Of a DNA stretch of 47,138 nucleotides, positions 4,060 to 46,368 are shown piece after piece. Positions within the stretch are counted from its first letter, which is position 1. Each line of letters opens with the position of its first letter. The DNA comes from Rhizaria sp. SCN 62-66 (taxonomy: Eukaryota), in NCBI GenBank assembly GCA_001724265.1, contig MEDY01000047.1:62001-109138 (forward strand), written 5' to 3'. The notes beneath the pieces were generated by a model. That model was not told the DNA's origin. It did no database searches and saw only the letters and a program-made list of their open reading frames with translations. Position numbers and translations under genes: made by a program.

Positions 4060-4751
4060 GACAAAGTACCCTCGCTCGTCCGTTAAGAGGTCAGGCTTCG
4101 GGAAAGGGTGGAGTTAGGGTACTAAACGTCGGTTGTTTAACAAACCAGTTTTTGTTCTGGATAGAAGGGTGAGTGTAATATGGAAATTTGCAAGTTGCAT
4201 GGTCTAAACCCATGACTAGACGTGAATTTGGTTGCATTTAGCACGGTATCTACACTCTCCCGCCCAGATTTCGAACTCGGTTCCTCTCGCCACGATATGC
4301 CACGGATACCCGCAGTGTAAACATTAAGCTACTTTTATTGAGTTAGTGTAGTGTGACTGTCGAGATATATACGACATTTTTCACTATTTGCAGCGAATAA
4401 CCCTTATTTCTACGCGTCTGAAGTTTCGAAGCCGCTCTGCCACGCGCCACGAAGGACTTCCGAGCGCAACGTACTCCCCCTCTTAGCACATCAAAACGAA
4501 CACATGATAGGATTATGCCATGAAATATGTCAACTACGCATGCGATTGCTAACTAATCCGTTATTATTTGTTCTTTCATGCTTTGTTTTCCTGCCCCAGA
4601 CCTCCTCTCACTCACCGTCGTTGCCTTCTTTGCCAACGGCTGTGTGTGCACCCCTTGTTTGCCCCCGCTCCCAACCGCGTTCTCAGGCATACGAGCCCTC
4701 AACAGCGCCCCCCTCATCACGCGTAAACTTGTTTTGCGCCCGTGAAGCCCG

Positions 4752-7700
4752 ATGTCGAGCCCGTCTGCCTCCCACTTTGACGCCCTTGACGCCGCCCAGC
4801 AGCCGCAGCATGACGACATCGCCACCGCCGCTGCTGACGCTTCTGCCTCGGCTCATGCTCCTGCTGATGTGAACATCGACAGCGACAACACGAGCAACAA
4901 CGGAGACGCAGCTATCCCGGAGACGCTGCCTCCGCCGCATGTCTCGCCTTCGAACGCCAACGCTGAGACCGAGGCGGCTGCTGCTGCTGCTGCTGCTGCT
5001 ACTGCTGCCGCTGCGTCACCTATCCCTGAGAAGCTGCCTGCTGCTGAGGCTGCTGCTACGGCCAGCGAAGACGCTGGCTCGAGCGATGCTGCTGCTAAGA
5101 CTGAGCCCCCCGCTGTCACCGAGGCTGTGCCTGCTGCTGCTGCTGCTGCCCAGTCCGAGTCCGACGATGTGCCCGCTAGTGTCCGCCTCTCCGTCTCGCC
5201 CCCTGTCGCTGCTGAGAGCGCTATTGCTGAGAGCGAGAACAATGGTGCCAAGTCAGCCACTCCCGTTGCCGCTGCGTCTGCGCCAATCCCCGTCTCCATC
5301 GCTGTCGAGAGCGCGGACGCCGACGCCGAGACTAGGAGCACTGAGGAGGCCGCTGTCGCAGCGACCCCCTTCGAGTTCACGTTCACTGACGGGACTGACG
5401 GGGCTGACAGCGACAGCGCTGCACACGGCCACGCGCACGCGCATGCGCACGCTCACAGTCACTTGGCGCCGGTCTCCCCCAAGAAGGCCGTGAAGCACAC
5501 CCCGCGCCGCTCTCTGTCCCCCCGTCACAGCAGCCAGACCAGCAACAGTAGCGTTCCTCTCGAGGCTGAGACTGATGCCGTGGCTGAGGCTGCGGCGGTG
5601 AACGCGGACGACATTCCCCAGCCTGCCACTGCGGAGGAGATGGAAAGCGTCGTGTGCGCCGACATCTTCGCTAAAGACGACAATCATGACAACGGTGACA
5701 ACAACACCGCTGACGACAAGACTGCGGCTCCGTCTGCGGTTCCTGAAGCGTTTGCCGAGGACACCGCCAAGCCCAAGACTGAGGCCGCTGCTCCTGAGCC
5801 GGACTCGGCTGTGGTGACCGAGTCCGTCGTCGTTGTCGCCGCCGCCGAGCCTGAGCCTGAGGCCGAGTTGGAATCCGAGCCCATTCCTTCCTCCAAGGCT
5901 CACGGCAAGGCCAAGGCGGGTCGCCCCTCTACTGCCGCCGCTGCTAGCCGTCCGTCCATTAACCGCACCCCTTCAACCTCCTCAAACAACCCCAAGGACG
6001 CGGCGGATGGCAGCGGGAGCAATGCCCACAGTCGTGCGTCGTCTCGCCGCCCCTCGATCAACTCCGCCACTGTTGCGGTGCCACCGACTGTGAGCGCGGT
6101 GCCTACCCCGAGCAAGCGCGTGTCTCTGGCCGCCAGCGCAACCAGCTCTGGCAGCTACAACAACGTGTCGATGGGTCCCCCGCCGTCGATGACGCGCCCG
6201 CAGTCCGCCCGCCTCTCTACGATGGGCCACGGCAACGCGCCCTCGCTGTCCCGCACCATGACTGCCGGCGGCAGCGGCGGTGGTCGCGGCGCCGGCGTCC
6301 CCCCGCCGCCGCCGCCGGCCCCCGAGGACTGCGGCATTTCTCCCTCCGTTCGCGGCCGTCTCTCGGCCATGAAGAAGCCCGTCGGGAACAACCCGTACGC
6401 GACCTTCGTGCCCCGCGGGCCGCCGCGCCCCCACACCGCACGCCAGTCCTCTTCCGCTTCCTCAGCCTCTGGTGGCGGCGGGGGCCGCACGCTGTCCCCG
6501 GGTCCCGCATCGGCCGACCGCACGGCGATGGTCTTCGCGTCGACGGTCGGCCGCTCGGGCGTCGTGTCGTACAACCCCCACCCGCGCGCCGAGAACACCG
6601 GCAACGGCGGTTTCGGCCAGTCCCGTCTGGATGGGCCCTCGCGGTCGCGGCTGCCGAACACCGTCGCCGGGGACAAGAACACCCCCGGACCTGGGCGGTA
6701 CATGCCCAAGGACGCGTGGGTCAAGCCCCCGGTCTCCTCCGTGGGGACCATGGGACGCGTGACCGTGCGTTCCGCACAGGAGCCCGCGTACAACGTCGGT
6801 CCCGGCCAGTACAACATCACGCCTATCTTAGACCTCGAGCTCGCGCGCTCCCGGGGCTTTTCGTTCACCAAGCGCGGCCCTACGATGATCGATGAGGCGG
6901 CGATGCGTGCAGCGGAGACGCCTTCGGCCGTGCACTACGATCCCCAGATCCCAGAGCCCCGGGTACGTCGCAAAATGCGATATTAAAAGCAAATAACGCC
7001 AGAGATGCACCGACTTGCGCACTTTTGTATCTCGAATTCAAATCAAGTTTTATCAGTCTATTTCGATGTTATACCAAATAATAATGTATATCTATCGCCC
7101 AACAATGCTAAATCGACACATTTTGCAATCTCTTTTTTATTTTTCATTTTGTTTTTCGTGTACTCTATCGCAGGGTTTGGCCGGCGCCGTTGCGCTGCGC
7201 TACACAGCCCCCAGCCGCGAGGATCCCGCCGCTGCGTACAAGAACAACCCCGCTGTCGGCGCGTACGAGACGCAGCGTTTCCTGGAGACCGGCACTGGCA
7301 CTCTGGGCGGGGGCGGCGCCAGTATGGCGTACCGCGGCGCTCAGATTGCGGACCCCGCGGCAGCCAAGAAGGACGTCCCCGCTGTCGGCTCCTACCAGGT
7401 ACGATCAATTGCACAGATATCTCACGCAAATCGAAACCAAGTGGGATACTAGCTTGGATTTTTGTATTGGCATAAATGTTTTCACTGTATTCCACGTCGA
7501 TGTGAATATATCAGCTCGATATCAAACTGATGTCTCAAAACTCACTATTTGTTTTTCATACGCTTGTTCTTGTTTGTTTTATCGCATCACCCACAGATTT
7601 CCCAGTTCGGCGAAACCGGCACTGGCACCCTTGGCGGCGGCGCCTCTTCCATGGCCTTCCGCAGCCCCCAGATCCAAGACCCTGCGCTCGCGAAGCGCGA

Positions 7701-22800: not shown

Positions 22801-25800
22801 CGCCGAGGCGGCCGCGGAGGCCAAGGCCGAGGCCGAGACCGCGTTTGAGGTGAAGCTGGAGGCCGCTGTGAACCAGGCCAAGGATGAGGCCGATGCCGAT
22901 ACGGCGGCCGCGATTATGGCCACAGTGGGCGCGGTCGAGGCTGCGGCTGAGGCCAAGGCCAAGGCCGCTGCAGAGGCCGCGGAGGCCGCCGCGACGGCGA
23001 TGGCTGAGTCGCACGCCGACACGGTCCTCGCCCTCAAGACCGCTCTTACAGCTGCGACCGCTGCCCACGGTGCCGCGGTGGAGGAGGCGGCGGCCACTGC
23101 GGCCGCCGAGGCTGATGCGACGGCGCGCGCGGAGGAGCGCGCGCTGCGCACGGCGGTGGAGATCAGGCTGGCTGCGGCAGAGGCGCGGGCGGCCGAGGCC
23201 GAGGCCACGGCAGCGCAGATCAGCGTCTACGAGGAAGACATGGTGCGTTTTTCGCTTATCTCACTAAATCGCATATATATCTTGACAACTAGCACCATCA
23301 CATGAACAAGTATTACATTTTTTTAATTTAATTATTTTATCAAACAGAACGTATATGCTAACACTGGTATCTACTATATTCGAATGCCATTTTCATAGGA
23401 GCGTGCGCGCATGACGATGCTTGCTCAGGAAGACAACGCGAAGGCCCGCTCTGACGCGATGATGGTGCAAGTCGCCCAACTTGAGGACGCTAAGGAAGCC
23501 GCTGAAGAGGCCTCCCGCAAGGCGATTGAGGCGTTGGACACTGCCGTCGCGCGCGCTGCGGCCGCCGAGGCCGAGGTCGTTGCCCTGGCGGCTAGACTTA
23601 AGGACGAGAAGGACAAGGTCGACGCCGCCAACGCCGCGTTGACCGAGGCCCTCACCGAAGCGGCGGCGCTTGGCACGCGGCTCGGCGAGCTCGAGGTCGT
23701 GATGGGCGAGAAGGACGTTGAGCTGATCGAGCTCCGGTATCGCCCTACGATCGACGCGCACGACAAGGTGGTTGCCGAGGCCAACTTTTACAAGAAGAAG
23801 GCGGATTCTCTGTCGAAGCTCGTCGAGCGCGGGCTCCGTGAGCAGAATGTTGATGTAAACAGCCTCGCGGCGGCGAATGATGAGGCCGAGGCGGCGGCGG
23901 CCGCGGCCGCGGCCGCGGCTGCTGCTGCTGCCGCCGCGGCGGCGGCGGTCACTGCGCCCAACAACGATGAGGACGCCCTCTGGCCCGGTAAGCTTTCTGA
24001 AGAGATATATCGTCGCTATCTTACGATGTCAATTTCAAAGTTCCTTCTGTTTATCTTAAACTGCGTATTCTATCTAAACATTGAATACGACCCTCACTCT
24101 TTTTTGTTCTCAATTCGTAACTTTGTTTGTTTTCAGGCGTCATGAGCGCCCTGATCGAAGGCAAGGCCCACCCCGACATTTCCCCTCACGGCGTCGCCCA
24201 GGGCCCCCCCGCCGGCACCCCCGCCTCGGGCCATGGTAGCGCGACCATCACCGTCACCCCGTCGCCCTCGACTGGCGCTGCTCACAGTCACTCTGCAACT
24301 GGCGCCGCTGTGGCCGCGTCTCCGAGCGTCTCGCTCTCGTTCCACGACATCGGCTCTCTGCCCCGGATGCGCCAGTACTCGTCCAACTCGGCCTCTTACA
24401 ACAGCAGCAGCGGCGGCAACGCGGCGGACGGCACGGCCATCATGGGTGTCATGAGTGCCGAGCAAGAGGAGCAACTCGCCACTCTTAAGTCCCAGCTCGC
24501 TGAGATCGACGCTGAGCGCCAAAAGGCGATCCAAAGCGTCAAGTCGTACAAGCGTGCGTTTGAGCAGCAGCAGGCGATTTCGCACCGGCTGCAAGTTCAG
24601 CTGCAGGCGCACGATATCCCTGCCTCTGACTCGAACAACAACAGCGCTGGTGTTGACGCTGCGTCTAGTGCCGCTGGCGCAGGTGCGAGTGTGCCGAGCC
24701 ACGTTGGCGGGCAAGAAACCCGCAAGCGTTGGATGCTCAAGTCGCTTTTCTCGCGCTCGAGCAGCTCCGCGAGCGGCGGCGTCGGTGCCGCGGGCGCTGG
24801 CTCCAGTTCATCGACCCAGGTCACCATCCAGCAGCTGCAGAAGCAGTACGCGGATATGCTCGTTCTGGCGAACACGCTGATGGAGGATTTGCACGACAAG
24901 GACACTGCGCTGACGCACATGCGCCAGTGCAACCGCATCCTCGGTGCGCGCGTGCGTGAGATCGAGCTGCAGCGCGCCAACAGCAGCGCCAGCAGCGGCG
25001 GCCACGGTGACGGCAACGGAGGCAAGTCTCCTGTGCAGTCAACCGGGTTCCAGGACTTTTCGGCGGACGGCGCGGACAGTGCGACGAGTCCTGTGCTTTC
25101 CGCCGTCGCCGCCGCCCCGGCGTCGGTCAGCGGCAGCAGCAGTGGCAGCGGTAAGATGAGCAAGATGAGTCTCGCAGCCACCCCTGAAGAGGACGAAGAT
25201 GCGATCGACAGCAACACTGAGAGCGACAGCCACGCCGCCAACACCACGACCATCAACAAGACGACTGGGGATGCTAGTGACAACGGCAATGCGCTGAGCT
25301 CCTCGCGCTTTATCACGAGCAACGAAGAGGATGACGACGTTTTCAACGCTGTTATTTGCGACGACACCGCGACGTCGGCAAACAATAACAGCACGGGCTT
25401 TGGGGCCTCAGCGTATGAGGACGACGACGACGTGTTCGCTGCTGCTCCCAGAGCCAATGACGCTGCGGCCGGTCTTGTTAAGAGTGATACGGAGGTCGAG
25501 GCGCCTTTCTCTCTGGACGATAACACGACGGAGACTGCGACGAATGCGACTGAGACTGAGACTGCTGCTGAAGCTGAAGCTGCTGCTGAGGCTGAGGCAG
25601 AGAGCGTTGCCTCGCCCCTGAGTGTTGCTGTTGAGTCTATCAAGTCTGAGCCTGCTGCTGTTGCTGTTGCTGCTGAGGCTGCTGCTGCGACTGAGCCTGT
25701 CGTTGAGACTGAGAAGGTTGAGTATGTGGCTGCCTCTGAGCTCGTTAAGGCTGTCGAGCCTGAGGCTGCTGCTGCTGCTGCTGAGACTGCTGCTGAGACT

Positions 25801-25953
25801 GCTGAGCCTGAGGCTGCTGATGCGGAGGCGACCGAGTCTGAGGCTGCCTCTCCTGTTGAGCCCACTTCTATTGTCGCAACTGCGAGCAACAAGAGTAACA
25901 ACAACAACAGCAAGAGCCACAACAAGAAGGGCAAGAAGAAGGGTGGCAAGTAA
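19812..25953 (+). CDS. Large coiled-coil protein, ~1846 aa, with N-terminal AIR9/SCAB-like Ig(-PH) region and a CCDC149-like motif; exons 19812-20162, 20297-20636, 20799-23242, 23399-23987, 24137-25953
   Basis: Four GT-AG introns (phases 0,1,0,1) join the five track ORFs into 5541 nt ending in TAA. Contains FQWYR...YMPSVDDIG..ISCQW and a long Ala/Glu/Lys heptad-rich region. Confidence 0.75.
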
Positions 25954-31078: not shown

Positions 31079-32601
31079 CGTTGTCACACAGAGCCTGGGC
31101 GGAGGGAGCAAGGGGCAACGGAACAAAGCAAAAGGACAGAGAGGTTGAGTGCGGTTTGTTGTCTGTTAAGGATTCGTCATTCTGGCGTCATTACGAGCTC
31201 AGCGCGATAAGACGTGGTGAAATAACGCAAGAAAGGCAGAACGCCGTGCAAGGATGTTTAATACAGCAGTAAATAGAGTGCTTTGAGTGGGCTGCACGAT
31301 TGCGTCGCGTTTGTGTCTTGTTTTGAGTGCCATCGGAGGTTGGGAACACTGGAAGCAGAGGGACGAGCCCCATCACCAAATACCGAAATACACACACAAA
31401 ACAGGCACTAGGAGAAGCAAAGCAAACGTGAGCAAAAGCAACAAAGCGAGGGCTATGCGGGGTGCGTTGCCGAGAAGTAGCGGAGCACGGGATTACGGTG
31501 CAGAGCAGCGGGAAGCGCGGGAGCGGAGCGGCCTGAGAGGGAGCACAGGGAGCATTTCGATTCTAACCTCGCAGCCGTGCAATCTTCCGTTGAATAAAGC
31601 GCCACGGGGGAAATGGAACCCCCCCGCACGTATACTGTTCCCCGTTTTAACGCTTTTGCACCCGACGCGTCGTGGCGCGCATACGGGCGCTTTTCCCTAG
31701 TCGCCCGGCGTGGCTAGCAGCCCGGTCTGCGAGAGCCGCGAAGGCCGATACGGCCTCGCTGACCCTTCCAGAATACCGCTTCATAGATCCCGGCTGTGCG
31801 CAAAAATTGTAAAATAAAACATGCACCACGCGACCTTTTTCTAATACATAGCCCAGGATCGCAGCCGGCGCGGCCTTGCCCGTCTTTAGCTTTAAAAGAC
31901 ATTAAAAGTGGCCTCGCTAAACCTGTTTGTGGTCCGACCGACCAACCAAAGAAACGAGAATGACAAGCACAGGGCCGAAAAAGTCCCGAGCGAGCGGGCG
32001 ACAGACAAAAGGAGGCTTGGGCGCGAGGAAAGAGGGTGTTTCTTCAGGCGTGGAAAGCGTGCGTTTGAAGTTTAATTTTAGATTGGGGGTGTATGCGCCT
32101 GCGTTACTTAAATCCGCTGCTATTATGGACCTTGCATGCCTATCCTCGACCCGCTGGATATTGGGAAGTGATGCTCGTTGTACCGGTGCTCTGGGCACTG
32201 CAAGGCGTTGACATCCGCAGCTCTACAGCCTTCCGCTATTTGTCATTTGAGTTTTTCCTCACGCACACAAATAACCCGTTTTTACTGTCTTTGGCCGCCC
32301 CACTTTTGTATCACAGACCCCTTTTTACTACCGGGATATCTGCTCTTTGCGTTTCCCTCACCGACCTACCCGCTTGTTGAGAACCTAACAACGACAGTAA
32401 CAGCAGAGAAGCGCCGCACACCTCCAGCGCGCTCTTCTGTTGCTGTAGCTGTTTCTCAGGCAACTTAGTTGGGCCTAACACCTTGCCCAAGCAACGCGTG
32501 TCCTCTGCTAAGCCTTTGCGCTCTTGGCACAGCAGCGACGTTTCTCACCACGGATCGTTATCCCACTAAGAGTTTAAGTCTCTTGCACACTCAGGAACAC
32601 C

Positions 32602-35600
32602 ATGGGTAACACTGTAGCTCGTACCGTACGTCACTTTCACACCACCGCAACACCATACTCCACGCTAAACTCGTCTCTCTCAAACACTATCTTCATAGCA
32701 GCAGGCTAACTAACTCCAAACGCTCACTCTTTCCTGCTACCCGTTACATCTTCACCGTTCGCTTTCCTTTTGCACTATTTCCACTTAACACCACATTCTG
32801 CGTATACGCGGCAATTTTTTAGGAGTCTACGGCGGAAGTATGGCGCTTTATGGTGCATATCTGGGACGAAACCTCGACCTACTCCCGATGCACCCCCGAG
32901 GAGCAGACCGCTCTCGTCCGCGATTTGGAAACCTTCGTGGCCTCGGAACTTGGCGCACCCAAGATGGTTGACCGCCTCTGGACCACATACCAGAAGCGCA
33001 ACGCCCCGCGCTTTGTTTCGCGTGTCCGCGAGCAGTGCTCTCTGGCGCTAGAGCTCGTGTATCAGCTGCGCGTGGCTGCCTTCGAAGCCAAGCCGTGGGT
33101 CGTCCGCGGGTCTGTGCTGTACTTACAGGGCATCGCCGAGCTGACGGGTACTTACACGGCGCTCAGGGCCTCGCTGGCGGCCGTGTGGGAAGCGATGAAG
33201 CAGTCGCGCGCGCTCGAGACGATCCAGACCAAGGTTCCCCGCGGCGAAGACGGCTACGACGACGACGAGGACGAGGATGAGGACGAAGACGAGGAATTCA
33301 TCGAGATTGACGAAGGTCTGAGCGAGTATGACCGCGCCATTCTGTCTCAAGTCGTGCAGAATGGCATCATTGCGCCGTCGCCGTCGACAATCACACAGGA
33401 GGACTTCTACAGTGTCTACTTGCCCTTGCTTGTCGTCAACCTCTTCGAAGTGCTGCTCGTTTCCCTGCGCCGCGCCCCGCCGCTCCCGCTGCCGTCGTTG
33501 CTTCACACCGCCGCGGACGGCACCGACGAAGCGATGGCGGCCGCCACGGACACGCTGGGCGCCGCGGGCGTCTCGCGGTCCTCCGCCGCCGCCGCCTCGG
33601 TCGCCGGCTCACGCGGCGTGTCCTCCGCCGTCGCCGCCGCCGCCGCCGCCGCCGCGTCGAGCTCGACCTCGGCGTTCGGCGCGCTCGACGGCATCCCCCC
33701 GCACATTTTGCCCTACGGTGCGGCGACACTGCCCGGTTCGCACCTCGCAATCTCGAGTGACGGGCTCTCGTACGAGGCCAGCTACGTGCCTGACAGCTAC
33801 CCGCTGGCGAGCACTCAGGCGCCGCACACGACGCTAGACCACTACGTTGCGCGGCTGTCGGACGGGAAGGTCGTCCCTGTGCGCGCGTACCACACCGCGT
33901 CCGCCGTCACGGGATCCAGCACGGACGCCACGTCCCCCGCCTCGGCCCATAGTAGCGCCAGTGCCAAGCTGCAGGCCGCGCAGTCACCCAAGGACGGCAG
34001 CGGGGCCCCCAGCGCGGCCGTGACGGACCTGGTGCGGTCAGTCGCGCACGGCTTCGAGGCCGTGTCGGCCGACGTGGCCGCGGCAGTCGGGACAATGATC
34101 TCTGACCGCGTGACGGAGGACCTCAAGGCGCGCGCAGAGTTGGCCTCGGGAGCGCCGGTCCGGTCCAACATGTTCTCGTTCGCATCCTCGGCGGCGCACC
34201 AACAGCAGTTTCCGTTCCACCACTACCAGCAGCAACAGCAGCTTCAACAGCAGCAACATTATCAGCAGCAGCAGGCCAATGAGCGCAACTCGCCTTCGAT
34301 CTCTGGCATGACTGGTGACTACGGCTACGCGTCTGGCTACCTCAGCAAATACGCCCAGAACAACACCTCATACGGCAGCCCCTACGGTAACAACCCAGGC
34401 ACCTTCGACTCGTTCTCACTCAACGGCGGCCAACAGGGAGGGTATTCGCCGCAAATGTCTCCGCAGACCGCCGCGGGCCCCAGGTTCGCCAAATTCCACA
34501 CCACGCTTACGACCACCTCGCTCTCGGCCATCTCCTCGCAGGCCTCCGCCACCGCCTCGGCCTCCGCCTCGGCCTCCGCGTCGGCGGCCGCACTCATGGC
34601 CGCCGGCGCCGGCGCGGCTGACGTGCCCGTCTCCGCCGCCGTCGAAGCCTACCGCCGCGCGCTCATCGTCGGCCCCGGCGGCACGTCTTACCTCGCCACG
34701 CTGCCGTTGCTCACCGCGCACTCGCCGTTCCTGCTCGCGCCTTCGTCTGTCCCGCCCACCGCGGCCGTGTACAACCTCCGCGTCTCCGTCGCCGGACTGG
34801 TCCCGCACGCGCTCACGCCGCTCGAGCGCCGCTTCAGGCCCCTGGAGCTGCCGCTGTCGCCCGCCCTGACCCGCGTCGCCGCCGCGCAGTACCGCGCCGC
34901 CTGGGACGCCCGCGAGCGCGCGCTTGTCACGACTCTGCTCCACGGCGTCCCGAATAGGCACCGCGGCGGCGGCGGCGCGGCCAACGGCGGCTCAGGCCAC
35001 GGCGGGTCGCTGCCCGGCTCGCGCCGCGGGTCGGTCTCCGCGACGACCACCATGAGTACCACTGGTTCCGGCGGCGCAGGGAACACCGGCGCCAACAGCG
35101 GCTCGCTGGCGCTAGTTGACTCAGGCAGCGACGGCGGCCGCGCGGGCTCGCTCGTCCTCGCCGCGGCCCGGCGCAACTCGCGCTCCGGCTCTGTCGTCGC
35201 CGGCTCCACTGGCGCCAGCTCTAGCTCCAGTAACGGCAACGATAGCGGCGATGGCGAGGGTGGCAACGGCGCCAACTCCGGTCTGTCGATTGATTTCGCG
35301 ACCGCGCCCGCGAGCGCCAACGATCCTCGCACGGCGCCCGCGCTGACGTTCGATCCGTCGCTTTTCGTCGTCGTTTCCGCCGCCGTCATCCTCCCCGGCG
35401 CGCGCCGCGAGTGGGTCACCACGACGGAGCCGCGCCAGCTCGCGGCCGTGATCGCGGCCGGTAACGGCGGCGCGGGCGCCGGTGACGCGTCCGCCGCGGC
35501 CTGGTCCAAGGGTCTTGAGTTCGCGTTGCCGCTGCACACGCGCTTCTCCGCGCTGCCCAACGCACTCGCTCCGGGCGCAGACGGCAACGGCGGTGTGACC

Positions 35601-38600
35601 GTCACCTACTCGGCCTCGGCTGACGTCGCCGCCGCCGCGCAGGCCGCCGCCGCGCTCGCCGCCGCGGCCGCCGGCAACAGCGCCGTCGCCAGTCAGTCCG
35701 CGCTGCTGACGTCCGCGGGCGCGACGTCGACGCTGCGGGTTGGGCTGGGCGGCGCGCACGGCGACGGCGTGCTCATCGCGCTCTCCGCCGCCGGGGACGG
35801 CCGCGGAGTGAGCGAGCTCGACCCGCGCACGGCGGCCGCGGCGATGACGCATAAGGTCGCCGCCGTCGCCAAGGCCACACTCGACGCGCAAGCGGCCGCC
35901 GCGGAGGCCGCCGCCGCCGCCGAGGCCGCCGAGGCCGCCGCCGCCGCCGCCGAGGCCGCTGCGAAAGAGACCGGTGAAAGCGCCGAGTCATCCGCCCTCG
36001 TGCCGTCGAGCGCCGCAGCGGTCACCAAGCCGTCGGCAGCGTCGGTTGCCCCCCTTGCGCCCGTGTCGACGGCGCCGCTCCCGTCGTCGGCTGACATCGC
36101 GTCCGTCGCCGCGTTCCCGCGCTCCGACGACACGCCGCTCAGCCTCATCTCGCCCGCGGCGTACGAGACGGCGACGGCGCACACGTACGAAGCCAAGCTA
36201 CCCGCGTGCACGCCGTCGATCCGCCTCGCTGTGCACGTCGTGCGGCTCGCGCGCCGGTCCGACGCCGTCGGCAAGGACGAAGGCGTCGCCGCTGAGGGAC
36301 TCGCGGCTGTGGGGCAGCACAGTGAGGTCGGGGTGGGCAACGCGCTCGCAGCCGCGCTCGACGCGTCACGCAAGACGGCGTCGAACCCCAACAGCAACTC
36401 TGGCAATAGTAACAAGGCGGGGGCGGGGAGCAGCAGGCGTTCCACTGCGGGTCGCGGTGGTAACAACAACGGCCGGGGCGGTGAGATGAGTGCTGAGGAG
36501 AAGTATGACCAGGTCTCCGCGTCGGTCACGCTCGCGTCCCTCGCTGCGAGCAGTTACTCCGACCGCGCCGACACGTCCCTGCTCTCTGAGCCCGAGGAAC
36601 TGACGCTGGATTTTATCGGAACCCTTGGCGCGACCGCGATCCTGCCCCTGGGCGCGCTGATCAACCCGGCGACTGTGGGCGCCTCTGCCGCCGGCTCGCC
36701 TGACTCGCTGTCGCATCCCACGGTCTCCAGCCGCGTTCCGTTGACCCAGCTTGTGCCTGCGCCGAGCTTCGCTCCCACCGCCACGCCCCTCAGCAACAGC
36801 AACAACAACAACAGCAAGGGCTCGGGGGCAACTGCGAGCGCGAGCGGGACTAATGACGCTCACAGTCAGTCGTGGGACCCCAACGACCACGCCGCCGCCG
36901 CCGCCGCCGCGACCGCCATGGCCGCGGGAGCTTCCCCGGCCGAAGTCGCCGCCGCCGCGCGCGCCGCGTCTTCTAACCCGGGCTACCGCCCCCCGACGCT
37001 GACGTTCGACCAGCAGCAGCAGAAGCAGCGGCAGACCGCGGACCAGCTCGCCAGCGCCTTCTATACCCGTCTCTCGCGTCCGCTGCCGACCGCGAGTCTG
37101 ATTGCCGGCGGCGCGACGATTACGCTCACTCCTGTTGCGTGCACGCGGGACACGCTGGACATCGCCACAGGCGCCTCTGCGCTCGCCCCGGCGTCTGCGT
37201 CGCAGCGCGGCGGCGGCAGCAGCAGCGGCCGCATCGGCGCCGGCGCCGCCCGCAGCAGCGCACAGGGGCTGCTGCCGGCGTCGCTGTCGGCCGCACTGGC
37301 TCGCGAGGCGCCCGCTCTCGTCGAGCTGCTCGCCGGCGTCCACGCCAGCGAGGCCGTCTTCCCTTGCCCGCCGGCGCCCGTGTCCTTCACCGTCGCTGCG
37401 GGCTCCGCGCTGACGGCAACCTCCGCCGTCGCCGCGCTATTGGGAGGCGCCCGCGAGGCCAGCGCAGTCGCCCCCGCGCCCGAGACGTCCGGCCTGACCG
37501 GCATCACGGGCCTCCACTGGTCGCTACCCAGCGCAAACGGGCTCATTCTGCACCCGAACGAGCTCAGCAAGATCCATGACCCCGCGCGCCATAACTACGC
37601 TCCCTCAGCTTCGTCGTCGGCGTTCGCGGCGGGCACTGGCGCGGCGTCTGCGTCCGCGGCGGCGGCGGGCGGCGCGGGCGGCCTCATGGCGCCCTCTTCG
37701 GCGACGCTCGCGGCCACGGTCGACTGGGAGGCTGTCGCCTGGGCTTCGTACCATGCCGCCGCCTCTGCTTTGATCACCAAGAGCGCGATGCAGCGTGTGC
37801 GGCTCGGTGTGACGACGCAGGGCCCCGCCAAGATGGGCCTCACGCGGCTCCTGCACGCCAAAAACCAGCAGCAAGCGTGGCACGCGCAGCAGAAAGAGCT
37901 GCGCAAGAAGGAGCGTGAGGCCATCGCCGCGGCTGTGATCGCCAAAGAGCGCGGTCTGACGCACATTCCTGAGAGCGACGAGAACAGCAAGGACAAGGAC
38001 GGGAACAGCTCGACGGCGGATGAGTCCAAGAAGGACGGCTCTGCCGCCGACGGCTCTGGCACCGACTCCTCGAAGTCTTCTGCACTGGCCAAGAAGGTGT
38101 CGACCTATATCGCCCCCGAGACGGCGACTGTGATGACCCCCGACGCGGCTAAACTTCTCGCCGAGCTGCGCCAGTTCGCCAAAGACGTCGCTGAAGACGC
38201 CCGCGACTACGGCCCCGCCGCCGTGATGCTTGTCCCGAGCGCACTGCCCTCTGCCAGTCTGATCAACCCCGCGACGGGCGTGCTGGTGCACGATATCCGC
38301 CTCCGCACGCGACGCCAGTGGACTCTGCGTGAGGCCGCGGTCAAGAACGCGGTGGCGTTTACAGCGCGCGCGGAGGCCACGTCCACTGGTGAGGTTGTCG
38401 CGGCGATCTCCTGCGGCGATTTCTTGCCTGCGCCGGTCACGGCGCTGTCGACGGAGGAGGCGGCTAAGCTTAACGCCGCGCTCGACTCCAAGGATGCGAA
38501 AAACTCCTCTAAGGACGGCAGCGGCACAACTACCAACGCCACTGGTTCCGCTGGTGCAACCGCCGACGGCGAGAAGAAGGACGATAGTGCCAACTCGACT

Positions 38601-41600
38601 GACGCGGCCGCTGCTGCGCCAGCGTCGCCGTCTGCGTTCAGCGCATTCGGCTCGTTCATGACGTCTCTCATCCCCGAAGCCCTCACCCAGTCCGCCGCCG
38701 TGGTCGCCGGCGACAACTCCAACGCCGCCGCGATGCTAGAGGTCGCGCGCGACCGCACGCGCGCTGCGGCGGCCGCGCAGTGGCACGCGATGTCGGCCGC
38801 GGCGACGGCGGATCCCTTTGTGACCGCGCCCGACGCGCTGGCCACGCTCTACATCTCTGACGTCCCGCTCCGCTCAAACGTACGTTTTTTATACTAACAA
38901 ACAAATCTTGATTATATCTTCACTTTTAAATCTAAATTTTATTCAAAACATGTATTTTGTCATTATTTCCACCAATACTATGTTTTTAATTCAATTGACT
39001 CACATATCTTTCCTCCATATCCACAATTCTTTGCGTTGCAGGATTTGCCTGTGGTGAGCTCGTCCGAGACGGCTGAGGTTCTGGCGACGGCCCTCCGCAG
39101 CAACGCTACGCACCTGCCCCCCGCTGACGTGGTCGCCCTGCGCACGGCGCTCATCAGCGAGCACGCGTCCAACAACGCGGCGTTTGCAGCTATCCCTCCC
39201 TCGGTCGCCGCGCGCGCCGACGGCTGGGGTGGTGGCCGCACTGCGAGCCACTTCCGGCCGATCCCGCGCGCGCACACGCGCGTTGAGGCCGCCGCCGGGG
39301 CCGCCGAGGACGCCGCGGACGCCGTGGCCGCCGCGGTGGCCGCAGGGATCTCCGTGTCGGACAGCGAGGCCGAGGCCGAGGAAGAGCTCTCGGAGTCGGA
39401 GCCCGAGGCCGGGAGCTGGGGCAAGCTCGACGCCAACACGCGCGGTGCGATCATCAAGTCACGCAAGGACCTTATGAGTTCTGCCACGGGTTCTGGCAGC
39501 AAGGACGGCGACAAGAGCGGCACTGTGGACGAACACAAGAGCTCTACGCTCTACGACAAGACGAGCGTTTCGTACGCGTTCGACAACGAATACGCGAGCA
39601 TCGAGGAGATCGAGCGACTCATGACGGCCGATCTTACCGCGCTCACGGTAATCGCCGAGGCCAAGAACACCGCCGCCCTCTCGGCCTACACCGCCGCCGC
39701 CTCGGCCGCGACGGCCGCGGCCACGGCGCGCAACGCCGAGCTCCAGTCACAGATCACCGAGCTGGCACCGGCGGCGACGCAGCTCTCGGGCCCTAAGGCC
39801 GCCGAGGCCAAGCGCGCCGTCGCCGCCCTGCAGTCGCAGCTGGTGACGGTCGACCTGGGCCTCATCCAGCAGCAGGCCGGCAAGGGCGGCGTGCCAAGCG
39901 CCAAGGAGCTCGGCAAGCGCGCCCGCGCCGAGCGCGCGCGGCTCTGCGCCGCCGGGATGCCGCTGGCGGACCCAGCGCTGACCCCTGCGCTGCGCATCTC
40001 GGCGATCGAGATTGCCAGCGAACGGCTCGCGCGCGCGCAGGCCCGCGTGACGGCGGTGCCGGAGAAGAGCGAGAAAGAGAAGGCGCGCAAGGAGCGGCTG
40101 GTGAAGCTGGCGGAGAAGCTGGAACAGGAGCTCGAGGCCGTCAAGTCAATCACGGGCAAGGATCCGATCACGCACTTGTATCAGGCCGCGCCGTCGTTTG
40201 TCGCTGACACCGCCGCTTCCACCACGATCTCGATTGCGAACGGCGCTAGCGCGAACAAGAACGACTCCAAGTCTGACTCGAAGGGTGATTCTGCTGCTGC
40301 TGCGGCTGCGGTTGTTGTGCCTGTGTCGTCGTCGTACGTCACGCTCGGTGCCGTTGCCACGTCTGCGTATCTCTCCAACGACCCGTCGTCGTACGCCGCG
40401 CTCGCCGTCTCCGCCGCACACACCGCCCACAGCGGCCCCAGCGGCCCCAGTGCGGCGACTGCGGCGACGAGCGCTGACCTGGCCGTTCTGGCGCTCGCCA
40501 CTCGGTCCACGGCGACTCTGCCGCCCGCTCTGGCCACGGGCGTGACGCCCGCCGCGCCACAGTGCGGTGAGACCCTGGCCTGGCAGTTCGCCGACCTCTG
40601 GGGACCCGCGGCGGCCAACGCGCCGGCGACGCGCGCCGCGCGGCAGCGGGCGGTTGCCGAGGCGCGCGCGCAACCCGCCATCAAGACCACGTTCGTCCCC
40701 ACTAATTCTACCTCTAACAACACCGCTAGCGCTGGCTCCAGCGCGAGCGCGAGTACGACTACTAGTACTGGTTTGGGGTATGATGTGCTGAACATGACGT
40801 ACACCGAGGCGCATGCGCAGACTCTGGCCACACTGGCCAAGCCTGAGCGCCGCTCCCGCTCGCTCGGCAAGAAGGCCGGCGGCCAGGGCTGGGCGGCGGC
40901 GGCGGCGGCGAATGCGGCCGCGCTCGCGATGGCTGCCTTCACCACGACGGCCGTCACCGTCGACGCCGACGACGAGGCGGATGACAACGCCGAAAAGGGT
41001 GACAACGGCGACGCTGATGGCGAGGGCAAGACGCCCAAGGCTGAGTCGGAAGGCAAGATCGCCGCTGATGAGATGGACGAAGAGACTCTTTTGTTCGGCG
41101 CTGACGCTGGGGGCGCCAACGCCCGACGCCCCGGCGCCAACGCGCACCCCGACGACGGCGTCGTTGACGACACTGCTGGCAGCGGCCTCGGCATGTTTGC
41201 CGACGAGGAGACCCTCGCCGAGCTGCGCGCTATGGCCGCCAAGGAGAAGGCCTTCACGGTGCCGCCGCCGATGCCAGTGCTCAGCAGCAGCAGCGCGCAT
41301 GCCACTAAGGGCGGCGCTCACGGTCGCTCCGCTTCTACTGGCACTGGCGCTGGGAGCAAGGGCGGGAAGGGCGGTAAGAAGCCTCTGCGCCGCGCTGGCG
41401 CCAAGGGTGGCAAGAAGTCCTCATCCTCTGCCACTGACTTCTCCGCTGCCAGTGCGGGCGACAGCGGCATGAGTGCGAGCGCGACGCGCGCCGCCGCGTC
41501 CCGCGCCATCAGCGAAGCCATCGCGCAGGCCGAGATCGAGATCGAGGAGGCGGCCATCGCGGCGGCCAACTTCCACCAAGAGCAGCAGCGTGAGGCTGCC

Positions 41601-42596
41601 GCGGCCGCGCTTGCGGCGGCCACGGCGGCGGCGCGCGCGGCGGGCATCAACGTTTCGGTCATCACTGGCGGCGCGCCAGGCACGCCCTCTGTCGGCCCCA
41701 TGTCCTCCGCTTCCGCCTCCTCCGCCTCCGCTGGCTCAGCCTCCGCTGGCTCTGCTGCGGCGTCGGTCGGCAAGTCCCCCAAGGTCTCTGCGGCGGGAGC
41801 GCATGCTGGTGCCCACCCCGCTGCGTCGCCGTCGGTGACGCCCCTGTCGCCGCCCGCTCCCCCCGTGACCGTGAACACTTCCGCTGCCTCTGCGGCGCCG
41901 AAGCCTAGTCCGCTTGCGAGCCCGCGGCAGTCCGCGTCCGCTGCTCCCGCGAGCGCTCCCGCGAGTGTTGATGCCGTTTCTGATGGCGACGACGCTGACG
42001 CTGAGGCGGACGAGGGCGACGAAGGCGACGACGCCGACGACGAGGACGAGGACGAGGACGATGCGGACGCCGCCAACGCCAACGGCTCGGGTGCGACTGA
42101 GACCAAGACGATCACGAACGCTGACGGCACGACTTCTACGGTCACCGTCCCTGTCACCGCGTCTGCGACTGGCGGCAGCGGCGGCAGCAAGACCGGTCGC
42201 CGCCAGAAGACTGGTGGCAAGGGCAAGAAGGGGAAGAGGAGCAGCAAGAAGGCCGCTGAGGACAAGTCTTGGTTTTCGAGCGTCATCGACCAGGTTGCCG
42301 GCAGCAGCAGCGAAGACGACGGCGACGAGGAGGCCAAGGCGCGCGCAGCGCAGCTGGAGAAGGAGAAGGAGTTCATGTATTATGACGACGAAGAGGCGTC
42401 GACGCCCAGTGAGAACGACAGCTCGAGCAGTGAGGAGGACGTCACCGAGATGGTGGACGAGGTGATTGAGGTCGAAGCGCTGGATGAGGCGGGCCGTGTT
42501 GTGATTGAGAAGCGCACTGTGCAGAAGGCTGTGACCAAGAGGGTCAGGAAGGAGAAGAAGGATAAGAAGAAGGACGATGGATGCGTCATCGTCTAA
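32602..42596 (+). CDS. Giant low-complexity protein, ~3211 aa, with N-terminal MGNTVA and C-terminal polybasic-CaaX; exons 32602-32625, 32823-38879, 39042-42596
   Basis: A 24-nt first exon (ATG GGT AAC ACT GTA GCT CGT ACC) and two phase-0 GTACGT...AG introns link the 2015-aa and 1186-aa track ORFs. Ends KKEKKDKKKDDGCVIV*. Confidence 0.78.
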
Positions 42597-43248
42597 TTAA
42601 GCAAAACGAAGAAGGCGTAACAAGACTTCTGCGATCGAGCATCAAGCTGGTTGTTTTGTTACTTTGTTTGATGTAGTATTAAAGTAATGTAGATTGCACA
42701 TTTTATAGACGCGGTACACGCGATGATTCCTCTTTTGTATCACGGAAAGTCCGTTAAGGCGCCCTATAGGCGTGTAAGCAAGGTTTTTTTTTTGTAAAGT
42801 ATTAATACAGACATGATATCATAAGAAGATGCGATTTATCCTTAATGACACGTTTTTAGTTTGAGTCGAGGTCTTACTGCTGTTTTTTATCTTCGTTTTG
42901 TTCCAGTGAGTAACGCAGCGCCTTGCTCACAGTCACTGGCTGACCAGCCTTGCGAGAAGCGGGGTTCACGTTGAGAAGAGATATTGGCATTAAGATCGTG
43001 CGAATATCAATACATGCCGAGATTTCACGAGATGTACATGTTTGCTAGGTGCCCGCAAATCTATACCTTTATATGCTTTTGTATACATCTATATCTCGAC
43101 ACTTTGTCGCTTCCCAGTTCCAGAGTCGCTCCGTCAGTCCGCTCTTCGGTTCGCACCAGCTCCCCAGTACCTCACACATCTCTATTCAAACTATATTCAC
43201 GTTGCCTATGATTTTCCCGTAGACCAAACTACTTATCACCGCGCCGCA

Positions 43249-46200
43249 ATGCTGTTCCGCTCCGTCTCGCGCGCTGCGGGCCAGTCCCAGCGCTGCCTGG
43301 TCCTCGCCACATCTTCAGCGGCTAACGCGGTCACCGCAGCCGCTCCCGCGCTCGCCAATGCGTTGTCTGCTGCGCACGTCTCCGCTGCGTTACCCATGAC
43401 TGCGTCGCGCTCTTTTGCATCGACTTCTTCTGCTTTTGCGTTGTCGTCCTTGTCTCTTTCTGCGTCCGCTGCCCTCCGCACCGCCGCGTCTACCCCCTTG
43501 TCTCACATCGCCAGCTATTACAACAACACAAACAGCAACGGCGCGGCCGTCGGTGTTTTTTCCGCTCCGGCGCGCTCCGTGCAGACAATCACGCCCGACT
43601 CCGTCTCCCACACCACGTCTGCGATGAACAAAGACGCCCTTGTCAGCGCGATCATGAGCCGCGACACGACCGAGCTCCGCCGTCTCCTATCCCTGCCTTC
43701 CGTCTCAGTCAACATGACCCTTGACGCGAACAACGCGACCTTGCTGCACACCGCCGCTATGTCCCGCTCCCCCGAGATTGTCTCCGTATTGCTCGCCGCC
43801 AAGGCTGACGTCAACGCGCTGGACGCAGCGGGCGCTACCCCGCTTGGGATCGCAATCACTGCGCAGAACGAGCCCGTCGCTCTGCAGCTGCTCGACGCTG
43901 GCGCCGATTTGACTCAGTGGCCCGCGCATATCCCCACTCCGGTCGCCTTCGCAGTGCTTCACGGTCTCACCGGTCTGCTCACGCGGCTCATCGCACTGGG
44001 CGCGAGTCCGAACGTGTCCACGACTGCGGTCGACTCCCACGGCCGCGTCAAGGTGCCGCCGCCGCTGCTCATCGCCACCATGCGCGGCTCGCATGCCATC
44101 GCCCGCTTGCTGCTCGAGGCGGGCGCGAACCCGCTTCTGCGTACGACGGGCATCCAGGGCTCTGTGCCTGTGCTCTCCAGCTCCAGCTCCAGCTCCGGCG
44201 CGAAAAGTGAAGGCGCCTCCACCGCCGAGGCTGGAGAGGGCGCCGTGACCGACGCGCCTCCGCTCCTCATCGCCGCCGCCAACTGCGATACTGCCATGAC
44301 GCAGCTCCTCTTAGCACACAAAGCCGACCCTCTGGCGATGGGCCGGCTGAGCGGCGCGTTGCACTCGCCTCTCGCGCTCGCGTGCTACAACCGGTCCCCG
44401 ATCGCGCTGGTGACGGCACTTCTCGACGCCGGCGCCGGCCCCGATACGGCCCGCGGCGCGACGCCGCACCCGCTGTCCTCCGCCGTCGCTGCTAACAACG
44501 CCGAGCTCACGCAACTGCTGCTCTCGCGTGGCGCTGATGCCAACATCCTCCGCGACAGCAACGGGATGACGCTGACGCCGCTGTTCGACGCCCTCGAGGC
44601 CCGCTACGACGACGTCGCGCTGGCACTGATTAAGGCCGGCGCAAACCCCAACAGCGCGGTCACGTACGACGAGAACGGGAACCAGTGCTCGCCGCTGATG
44701 TACGCCGCGTACTTCAACAGCACGAAGCTCGTCGCGGCCCTGCTCGCGGCTAAGGCCAACGTCAACTTCACTGCCTCGCAGCGCAATCCGATCACGGCGC
44801 TGCACATGGCTGCCGTCAACGGGTACACCAGTGTCACGCGTGCCTTGCTCGCGGCGGGCGCGGACCCCAATTGTGCGATCAACGGGGTGCGTCCGCTGCA
44901 GATGGCGCTCACGCAGGGATTTATCGGTCCTGCGCTCGCGCTGATAGAGAAGGGCGCATCGCTGACCACGCGAGACTTTGCGGATCACGACAAGGTGATG
45001 GATGTATACAGCCGTTTTTTCTTCACCCTCGAAGACGTGTGTCCCGACGCGACCGTCACCATGAAGTACAGCAGTATGCGCCGAGGCTCAGTCGCCGCGC
45101 TCGGCCCTTTCCCGGCGCCGTTTGCCGAGTACGTCAGCGATCAGAGCGCTGCCAGCGCAAACACTGCGACCGATGCCAGTACTAGTAGCGGCGGTGTGAC
45201 TGTGTTTGGAGGCCCGTCTGACTACGTGATGGCGTCTGTGCCGACGACGGATGACGTTTTGCTTGCGCGCAAGCAGCAGCAGATGCAGAAGGCCGCCGCC
45301 GCCGCTTCCGCTGCCCACAACATCAACAGCGTTGGCGCGAGCACTGCGGTTGAGGACGACGACGAGGACGTTGAGATTGCAGTTGTGAACAACAACAACA
45401 GCAACAGCAACGACGGTGTGAACGCTGCTGCGGTTACTGCGCCGACAGCGAGCGTTGACAGCGCGCTCGAGCTGCCCCACTCTCTGCGCCAGCAGTTGCC
45501 TCTGCGGCAGAAGGCGATGGGCGAGCTGTTTAAGTTCAACGCGCTCGAGGAGAACGCTGTGCTGCTGCCGACCACGAACGGCGTCGTCGGGTGGCATCCC
45601 GTCGTCGCAGCAGCGTGGCTCGGTGACGCCGAGCTCCTCTCGGCGATGCTCTCACGCTCATCTACGGCTAGCAATAACAACAACAGCAAGAGCGCCAACG
45701 GCGCTGATCTGTCTCAGGCGACTCTCACCGTTGCGCTCGCCTGGGCCGTGATGCAAAACAACGTTTCCTGCGCTCGTTTGCTCCTCGCCGCCGGCGCCAA
45801 CTCGCACGGTCACCTGGACACCGCGGCGCAGTCAGTGCAGTCTAACTCAGGCCCCGCCAACTCGACCCTGCTTACGTGGACGCGCGCGTACGAGAAGGCC
45901 GAGACGGAGCGCTGGCGCGCGGCGGCACGCGACACGGCGGCTAAGGCGCGCGCGCGCGAGCGGGACATCGCGGTGCGGCGCGCGGCTGTGAAAGAGCTTG
46001 CCGCGGCTGATGCGACGGCGGCGGCGACTGACGGGAAAGGCGCGACCGCGACCGTGGCTGCGACGGGTGCGGGTGCGAGTGCCGCCCGCCCCACTGGCGC
46101 TGCGCAGGCGAAGCGCCGACCGCTGGAGAAGCTGCTGGCCGAGGTGACCGTGGGCAGCGAAGTCGAGGCCAAGATCAAGCAGACTGAGGACGCTGCTGAG

Positions 46201-46368
46201 GCAGCGGTGACTCAGGCGTGGCAGAAGTCGTGGGCTGCTAAGTCGGTCGAGACGGCCGCGCAGAAGGCTGCGGCTAGCATTGCAGTTTTGACCCCCGTTG
46301 ATCTAGCCAAGCTGCGGAATAACACGGAGATGGAGGCCCTGCTCACCCAATGGAGCGCCAGCAACTAA
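43249..46368 (+). CDS. Multi-ankyrin-repeat protein, ~1039 aa, with predicted mitochondrial presequence
   Basis: Repeated TLLHTAA/TPLGIA/SPLALA/TPLFDA/SPLMYAA/TALHMAA...LL.AGA.(V/P)N units. N-terminus MLFRSVSRAA...RSFAS has no acidic residues. Intronless. Confidence 0.85.
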   Translation: MLFRSVSRAAGQSQRCLVLATSSAANAVTAAAPALANALSAAHVSAALPMTASRSFASTSSAFALSSLSLSASAALRTAASTPLSHIASYYNNTNSNGAAVGVFSAPARSVQTITPDSVSHTTSAMNKDALVSAIMSRDTTELRRLLSLPSVSVNMTLDANNATLLHTAAMSRSPEIVSVLLAAKADVNALDAAGATPLGIAITAQNEPVALQLLDAGADLTQWPAHIPTPVAFAVLHGLTGLLTRLIALGASPNVSTTAVDSHGRVKVPPPLLIATMRGSHAIARLLLEAGANPLLRTTGIQGSVPVLSSSSSSSGAKSEGASTAEAGEGAVTDAPPLLIAAANCDTAMTQLLLAHKADPLAMGRLSGALHSPLALACYNRSPIALVTALLDAGAGPDTARGATPHPLSSAVAANNAELTQLLLSRGADANILRDSNGMTLTPLFDALEARYDDVALALIKAGANPNSAVTYDENGNQCSPLMYAAYFNSTKLVAALLAAKANVNFTASQRNPITALHMAAVNGYTSVTRALLAAGADPNCAINGVRPLQMALTQGFIGPALALIEKGASLTTRDFADHDKVMDVYSRFFFTLEDVCPDATVTMKYSSMRRGSVAALGPFPAPFAEYVSDQSAASANTATDASTSSGGVTVFGGPSDYVMASVPTTDDVLLARKQQQMQKAAAAASAAHNINSVGASTAVEDDDEDVEIAVVNNNNSNSNDGVNAAAVTAPTASVDSALELPHSLRQQLPLRQKAMGELFKFNALEENAVLLPTTNGVVGWHPVVAAAWLGDAELLSAMLSRSSTASNNNNSKSANGADLSQATLTVALAWAVMQNNVSCARLLLAAGANSHGHLDTAAQSVQSNSGPANSTLLTWTRAYEKAETERWRAAARDTAAKARARERDIAVRRAAVKELAAADATAAATDGKGATATVAATGAGASAARPTGAAQAKRRPLEKLLAEVTVGSEVEAKIKQTEDAAEAAVTQAWQKSWAAKSVETAAQKAAASIAVLTPVDLAKLRNNTEMEALLTQWSASN

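Follow-up and report, generated by a model that had tools for sequence, protein, structure and literature searches.

To our knowledge, few proteins bear a lipid signal at each terminus. For DIRAS3, a small GTPase of the RAS family, a myristoylated N-terminus and a prenylated C-terminus are experimentally supported and are described as 'double anchoring' (PMC10616557). A membrane association 'via both termini' has likewise been proposed (PMC5869587) for protist variants of Rheb (FYVE-Rheb and PX-Rheb), small GTPases with N-terminal lipid-binding domain fusions. Here a gene is described from a stretch of 47,138 nucleotides (nt) of Rhizaria sp. SCN 62-66 (contig MEDY01000047.1, positions 62,001 to 109,138, forward strand), the whole of which is referred to as the window. 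The reading preferred here, to which a probability of roughly 0.6 is given, is that of one three-exon gene for a multi-point lipid-anchored peripheral membrane protein of 3,211 amino acids (aa) belonging to a small new protist family. As in DIRAS3, N-myristoylation and prenylated CaaX signals (here predicted) occur in one polypeptide, and as with the Rheb variants, a two-ended membrane association is proposed for a protist protein. The likeness ends there, as the family described here ranges from 872 to 3,211 aa, is without a GTPase domain, has predicted helical and C2-like parts, and shows no sequence relationship to DIRAS3 and no homology to the Rheb variants.

Two relatives are used for comparison throughout. 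P0003 is an NCBI protein of 2,740 aa with 60% identity to the window protein over the N-terminal 360 columns and 40% identity over a single alignment of 2,117 columns, the two being collinear from residue 9 to the end. L001 is the contig encoding the database protein P0010; it came from a profile scan of JGI metagenome contigs, and its spliced product is 872 aa long. In the window, the three exons (Table 1) join in frame to 9,636 nt and translate into 3,211 aa with zero internal stops and with a C-terminus of ...KKDKKKDDGCVIV, the last residues, ...KRVRKEKKDKKKDDGCVIV, being followed by TAA at 42594-42596. An earlier note on this DNA had described a protein with a predicted lipid anchor at either end, and its reading of the 24-nt first exon MGNTVART and of the protein end proved exact.

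The two large open reading frames (ORFs) that make up most of this model are one gene encoding one protein. Contigs of four public runs (X1-X4, wastewater or activated-sludge libraries holding 36-43% of the sampled words), of which X1 and X3 represent one sample, were placed on 32000-43000. The junction 38879/39042 (GT..AG, with 162 nt skipped) was found in contigs of X1 and X3 (records 4 and 19), the shorter sides of these contigs comprising 179 and 121 letters. Since this junction is seen in cDNA, P0003 is collinear with the window protein across it, and a single ORF in L001 spans the N-terminal domain (N-domain) through the CaaX box, the three-exon, one-protein model of the earlier note is upheld.

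The first exon is much the shorter part of the model. Its start codon has the context ACACC ATG G and is preceded by an in-frame TAA at 32575, 8 codons upstream of 32602. The donor GTACGT at 32626 directly abuts the exon, and the acceptor TTTTTTAG ends at 32822, its TAG being the in-frame stop that opens ORF 32823-38897. GTACGT is the prevailing donor type in the window, where it occurs at 26 sites against 14.7 expected and at 8 of 18 filter-passing candidate donors at ORF ends, including the cDNA-verified 38880. The two strands of the window together contain 1,025 ATGs, of which 4 encode a heptapeptide with the motif for N-myristoyltransferase (NMT) given below; the ATG at 32602 is the sole one that combines this motif with a donor hexamer after codon 8.

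The same arrangement was found in L001, in which a 24-nt first exon encoding MGNSIVTS (L001:5670-5693) reads ...GGGAAG ATG GGT AAT TCG ATC GTC ACA TCG and is followed by the donor GTAAGT. An intron of 217 nt comes next, ending in CCCTATAG before GAT GCC CTG TAC GAC GTC TGG TAC TTC..., and this intron is in phase 0 and lies at the same residue position as that of the window, with a TAG acceptor again closing the frame. BLASTP of the spliced window model against the spliced L001 model aligned residues 1-148 to 1-148 with 32% identity (E 2e-22). The sole Met near the start of exon 2, that in MVHIW, is Leu in both P0003 and L001, and conservation with these two relatives already begins upstream of it, with the first codon of the exon. 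An upstream start exon is required because the frame of exon 2 is closed by the acceptor TAG, conservation runs from its first codon and the alternative Met is not conserved. The case for 32602-32625 as a genuine first exon is thus a strong one on sequence grounds; it is indirect, but the comparison with L001 is decisive.

It should be noted that this exon seems to be missing from both database entries. The annotated first 33 residues of P0003, MLFSHSFHLSSLPVF...LLLLQ (beginning MLFSHSF), stand directly before the conserved EITSEVWRF and are probably a translated polypyrimidine tract plus CAG acceptor, the public model missing a short first exon. In P0010, the Met given as the start is a GTG (L001:6001-6003) 30 codons into exon 2; this start appears to have been mis-called, with the real one being the ATG at L001:5670, across the 217-nt intron. 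The 8-codon start exon thus seems to have been missed by automatic annotation in two predicted relatives, and micro-exon starts of this kind can hide N-terminal signals from ORF-based annotation.

The NMT motif has been quoted as M-G-[^DEFRWY]-X-[^DEKR]-[ACGST]-[KR], and according to the same source Val has been reported for position 6, while position 7 need not be basic (PMC9018777). The window peptide MGNTVAR matches this motif at every position. The Gly directly follows the initiator Met in both the window (ATG GGT, 32602-32607) and L001 (L001:5670-5675) if those ATGs are the start codons, and MGN within an 8-codon first exon is common to the two. Gly2 is accordingly named here as a predicted N-myristoylation site. 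A myristoylated amphipathic helix of the Arf type was also considered and dropped, the hydrophobic moment being moderate in the window (<=0.50) and low in L001 (<=0.28).

At the opposite end, the consensus for protein geranylgeranyltransferase type I (GGTase-I) is given as Caa[L/F/I/M/V], position a2 being preferably a branched aliphatic residue (PMC11304957). A second source calls for a linker, from -1 to -11, of small, hydrophilic and flexible character, in which lysines are more frequent among GGT1 substrates (PMC1175975). The window ending CVIV satisfies the former, having a branched aliphatic residue at a2 and an X acceptable to farnesyltransferase (FTase) or GGTase-I, and the linker KEKKDKKKDDG preceding it, compared by rule, satisfies the latter. 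The homologues end in KKKDDDG-CVVM (P0003) and EEEAQ-CTIV (L001), and a CaaX ending is present in three of the four family members with a readable predicted C-terminus (the window protein, P0003 and L001); P0005 and P0006 have no usable C-terminus and were left out of this count. Both lipidation motifs are thus real as motifs and conserved, both termini being kept in L001, with its MGN micro-exon and CTIV, and the C-terminus also in P0003, with its CVVM.

The earlier note had also likened the C-terminus to that of K-Ras4B. The window protein and P0003 do carry a Lys/Arg-rich run followed by C-aliphatic-aliphatic-X, with CVIV and CVVM resembling the CVIM given as the K-Ras CaaX box (PMC1175975). 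The run is, however, broken by acidic residues and set off from the Cys by DDG or DDDG, and L001 is without such a run. In K-Ras4B itself the polybasic run directly abuts the Cys. Counts of K/R versus D/E in the 20 residues before the Cys are 10 versus 4 in the window, 9 versus 5 in P0003 and 1 versus 3 in L001, so that the resemblance holds for the long forms and fails for L001.

The extent of the family was examined by an exhaustive phmmer search of the 260-aa N-domain against 1.84 billion representatives. At E <= 0.001 this gave nine proteins, five of which are true relatives (P0003, P0005, P0006, P0008 and P0010); P0004 is a fragment of the window's own protein, and P0007 and P0009 (insect-like repeat proteins) and P0011 (an acidic run) were dropped as unrelated. 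Word-indexed protein searches, in each of which about 8,000 top candidates were scored, returned only P0003, P0010 itself and P0004, and the first metagenome scan, made with profile A1, returned no relative. P0006 links the short and long forms, with E values against the window of 1e-8 and 3e-7. The C-terminal third of P0006 (residues ~560-763) is Arg/Pro-rich and unlike the family, and it is probably the wrong frame of GC-rich DNA read after a frameshift or missed intron.

A Pfam search of both large ORFs and of five homologues gave no usable family (P0001/P0002 at E <= 1, the L001 protein at E <= 10), and searches of PDB sequences with profiles A1 and A2 gave best E values of 0.0083 and 0.33, on unrelated proteins. 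A match to VPS13_N (chorein-type) was rejected, as it lay over a poly-Gln stretch and its score of 8.7 bits (E 0.4) fell short of the cut-off, which is 80. Clusters of the FLJ43738 family in the ESM Atlas scored 0.76, within the range of shuffled proteins, and were kept as a lead only; a search of the ESM Atlas with the N-domain alone gave no usable match. Taken together, these results point to a small protist family not described before, with no Pfam or PDB sequence relative. For the whole protein, this agrees with the earlier note, which had recognised no family; some of the folded-looking islands, in contrast, can be tentatively assigned, as a helical N-domain and C2-like strands.

The assignment was made through an AlphaFold2 model of the L001 protein built on a six-sequence alignment, in which a helical N-domain (residues 1-190, with block means of the predicted local distance difference test (pLDDT) of 57-89) is followed by a β-rich core (212-525, ~55-72). 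A fold search with the N-domain led to no assignment, the best VIA Z, 9.1 on a model with a pLDDT value of 54, being below the bar for helical bundles. A wide search with VIA-align covered 48,161 chains, and its top matches were C2 domains, all lying over the range ~205-529 of the L001 model, including BON1 (Z 11.6, root-mean-square deviation (rmsd) 3.1, 136 aligned) and the C2A domain of CEP120 (Z 10.0, 126/130 aligned). A C2 domain is named in the title of 27 of the 50 rows listed, and most of the other listed rows are phospholipases, PI3-kinases, DOCK and Nedd4, which carry C2 domains. Compared with known C2 proteins (the copine BON1, CEP120, extended synaptotagmins and ferlins), the sandwich of the L001 model superposes with VIA Z values of 8-11.6 and an rmsd of 3-4 Å over ~120-136 residues; unlike them, the family has no Pfam C2 match, its strands are split by very long inserts and the model is of low confidence.

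The strands of the L001 model correspond to the conserved blocks of the family, and the blocks of the window protein (YNLRVSVAGLVP; LFVVVSAAV..REWVTTTEP; FALPLHTRF; SIRLAVHVVRL; LDFIGTLGAT; ATITLTPV) are collinear with these and separated by low-complexity inserts. A C2-like core is therefore considered likely in the window protein also, by way of the modelled relative.

Under the preferred reading, the family plan would consist of Met-Gly-Asn from an 8-codon exon, a helical domain of ~180-280 aa, an interrupted C2-like β-sandwich, a variable tail and a CaaX box. Methionine aminopeptidase would expose Gly2, which would be acylated co-translationally by NMT, and a CaaX prenyltransferase would modify the Cys fourth from the end, an X of Val or Met suggesting a geranylgeranyl or farnesyl group; the -aaX residues would be removed and the new end then carboxymethylated. 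In the window protein and P0003, the Lys/Arg run beside the prenyl group would add electrostatic affinity for acidic membranes, and the protein would be held chiefly by these two together, as the strong anchor. As no Cys or basic cluster lies near the myristate, the contact made by this single lipid would be weak and secondary, or else the lipid would act as a switch by packing on the helical domain. The C2-like domain could provide a third contact, to the membrane or to a partner, and the protein would be held at several points on the cytosolic face of a membrane.

Several results weigh against this reading. The junction 32625/32823 and a transcript start were absent from the contigs of all four runs X1-X4, so that of the two junctions which the earlier note had proposed checking against RNA, only 38879/39042 was confirmed. 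The stretch 32367-32733 is uncovered by X1/X3 contigs, and X2 offers only a 21-letter spurious joint, which makes the absence no evidence either way; the only listed piece over the region is X4 record 23 (32000-33287), contiguous like DNA. The L001 peptide MGNSIVT misses the quoted NMT motif at positions 6 (Val) and 7, and L001 has an in-frame ATG 48 codons upstream of MGN with no stop between, because of which the L001 Gly would be internal if transcription begins further upstream. At the C-terminus, P0008 has a predicted end of ...SLFGW without a CaaX box, being a predicted protein that is possibly truncated, and because L001 has 1 K/R in the 20 residues before the Cys, the polybasic run is, as judged from the sequences compared, a trait of the long forms and not of the family. 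Intron 2 is unspliced in a contig of poly(A) RNA (X2 record 13, 38706-39387) and in X4 record 26, which may represent pre-mRNA, DNA carry-over or a minor isoform of 2,032 aa that ends in VRFLY and lacks the CaaX box. The C2 assignment was made on a model of L001 that is of low confidence (mean pLDDT 50, with the β-core at ~55-72), for which Foldseek gave no match at E <= 0.001, its weak rows being mostly C2 domains; Pfam C2 (PF00168) was unmatched by both large ORFs and the L001 protein, and the transfer to the window is by short collinear blocks, the best hhalign P between short and long forms being 3.8e-4 and the next 0.11.

The points concerning the N-terminus bear on an alternative in which only the C-terminus is lipidated. 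The protein would then be a prenylated polybasic one, with MGN being either not the true N-terminus or unacylated (e.g. N-acetylated, or part of the fold). Besides the first junction being unseen in RNA contigs and the two features of L001 just given, this would suit the expected weakness of the N-terminal anchor, as a single myristate without a second signal nearby anchors weakly. It is nevertheless considered unlikely: the window and L001, at only 32% identity, agree in M-G-N, in a first exon of 8 codons, in where the donor lies and in the phase of the intron, MGNTVAR meets every NMT position with an in-frame stop 8 codons upstream, and the alternative Met of exon 2 is unconserved.

The preferred multi-point reading could also be extended. 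It is conceivable, but rather improbable, that flagellated protists possess a family of C2 scaffolds, conserved since ancient times and lipid-anchored twice, with the two ends lying in two closely apposed membranes or both targeting the cilium, so that the protein would staple or space membranes, the 24-nt exon being preserved for its acylation signal.

The earlier note had suggested a long flexible tether or cortical spacer between two membranes, with one anchor in each and the low-complexity chain setting the distance. Its description of the chain as mostly Ala/Ser/Gly low complexity with islands was accurate: the protein is 21.5% A, 11.6% S and 8.1% G, 77% of its residues lie in low-entropy 25-aa windows by our own entropy measure, and 31.5% lie in islands with >=50% identity to P0003. 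The two terminal anchor signals, this ~77% of low-entropy sequence and the very long chain, the ends of which could sit in different membranes, would all suit a tether. The length of the family members, however, varies from 872 (L001) through 2,740 (P0003) to 3,211 aa (window) with no loss of the termini and domains, conservation relative to P0003 is lowest in the low-complexity parts, the inserts fall within the C2-like loops as well as between domains, and their richness in Ala agrees with the 70% GC of the exons. Because of the variable length, the retained termini and domains, and the position and poor conservation of the inserts, chain length is considered not to be the function; the bulk rich in Ala, Ser and Gly is read as sequence inserted in single lineages, the genome being GC-rich, and not as conserved functional length. 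The tether proposal is weakened by this and is now regarded as doubtful indeed. Finally, the notion that each of the two large ORFs is a gene of its own, or that a disordered protein without any role at membranes ends in these motifs by chance, could appeal to the unspliced contigs over intron 2 in X2 and X4 and to the lack of a Pfam family, but it is largely refuted by the spliced junction in cDNA contigs, across which P0003 is collinear, by the N-domain and CaaX box sharing one uninterrupted ORF in L001, and by CaaX endings in three lineages when no more than 0.3% of the residues of the 3,211-aa window protein are Cys.

The lipid signals and the C2 fold of the preferred reading are known; they occur here in an unnamed family, in which the two-ended arrangement is unusual and the start micro-exon is conserved. 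No description of a large myristoyl-C2-CaaX protein was found in open-access text. A two-ended lipid logic thus appears in a large, non-GTPase, C2-like family unnamed by profile libraries and, if the lipidations are true, the family would be suited to a study of how a chain that is very long and largely disordered is positioned on a membrane by anchoring at several points.

Table 1. Positions in the window of the gene and of the features assigned to it.
Feature	Position	Strand	Basis or remark
Exon 1, 24 nt, MGNTVART	32602..32625	+	sequence: ATGGGTAACACTGTAGCTCGTACC; codons ATG GGT AAC ACT GTA GCT CGT ACC
Intron 1, 197 nt, phase 0	32626..32822	+	GTACGT...TTTTTTAG
Exon 2, 6,057 nt, 2,019 codons	32823..38879	+	3' end fixed by cDNA junction
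Intron 2, 162 nt, phase 0, AT-rich	38880..39041	+	AAC, then GTACGT...TTGCAG, then G
Exon 3, including the TAA stop at 42594-42596	39042..42596	+	sequence, cDNA, orthologue collinearity
Conserved, predicted helical N-terminal domain (model residues 12-288)	32832..33662	+	60% identity to P0003; phmmer matches P0005, P0006, P0008, P0010; all-helical in AlphaFold2
β-strand-like conserved blocks, ~800 aa	34734..37145	+	islands relative to P0003; C2-like reading inferred via L001
Polybasic run KRVRKEKKDKKK	42537..42572	+	10 K/R, 4 D/E in the 20 residues before Cys
CaaX box CVIV	42582..42593	+	Cys at fourth position from C-terminus, then TAA
Probable 5' leader	32230..32601	+	C/T-rich, G-poor; A.21 C.32 G.19 T.28; inferred
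Probable 3' untranslated region	42597..42772	+	contigs of one sample (X1 record 7, X3 record 22) stop at 42771/42772; weak hint

Upstream of the exon 1 start, ATGs on the + strand are found only at 32093, 32125, 32136 and 32171, with none in 32172-32601. At the 3' end, an X4 contig continues to 43000, beyond the ends of the X1 and X3 contigs at 42771/42772.

The window is eukaryotic in character, having GC-rich exons (~70% GC over 33-42 kb) and AT-richer introns and spacers. Among the neighbouring genes are those for CLN3, a cation-efflux transporter, Nop56/58, a DEAD-box helicase and an ankyrin-repeat protein, together with two cilium-associated families, SHIPPO repeat and CCDC149 (ORFs 4746-6986 and 24121-25953). 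On the L001 contig, BBS2 was found at L001:11718-13670 (-). Judged by these cilium-related neighbours, the organisms of both the window and L001 were probably flagellated, and a ciliary or cortical membrane role for the protein is possible.

The ankyrin-repeat ORF (42994-46368) is an open frame of 1,124 aa situated ~400 nt 3' of the gene, past an AT-rich spacer, and appears to be a separate gene. Upstream of the gene, 31100-32600 has the appearance of a divergent promoter, with 31100-31560 being purine-rich on the + strand; for a gene on the minus strand that ends near 31165, this stretch would be a leader rich in pyrimidines. A search of the window against Rfam gave no match. It should also be noted that GTACGT donors at ORF ends with a sharp drop in GC are located at 6963, 8371, 8938, 20163, 20637, 28205 and 38880 (+) and at 2176 (-), those at 20163 and 20637 being two further plain examples of this donor. 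The introns at these donors are AT-rich, measure ~130-200 nt and have a pyrimidine tract ahead of their final TAG or CAG.

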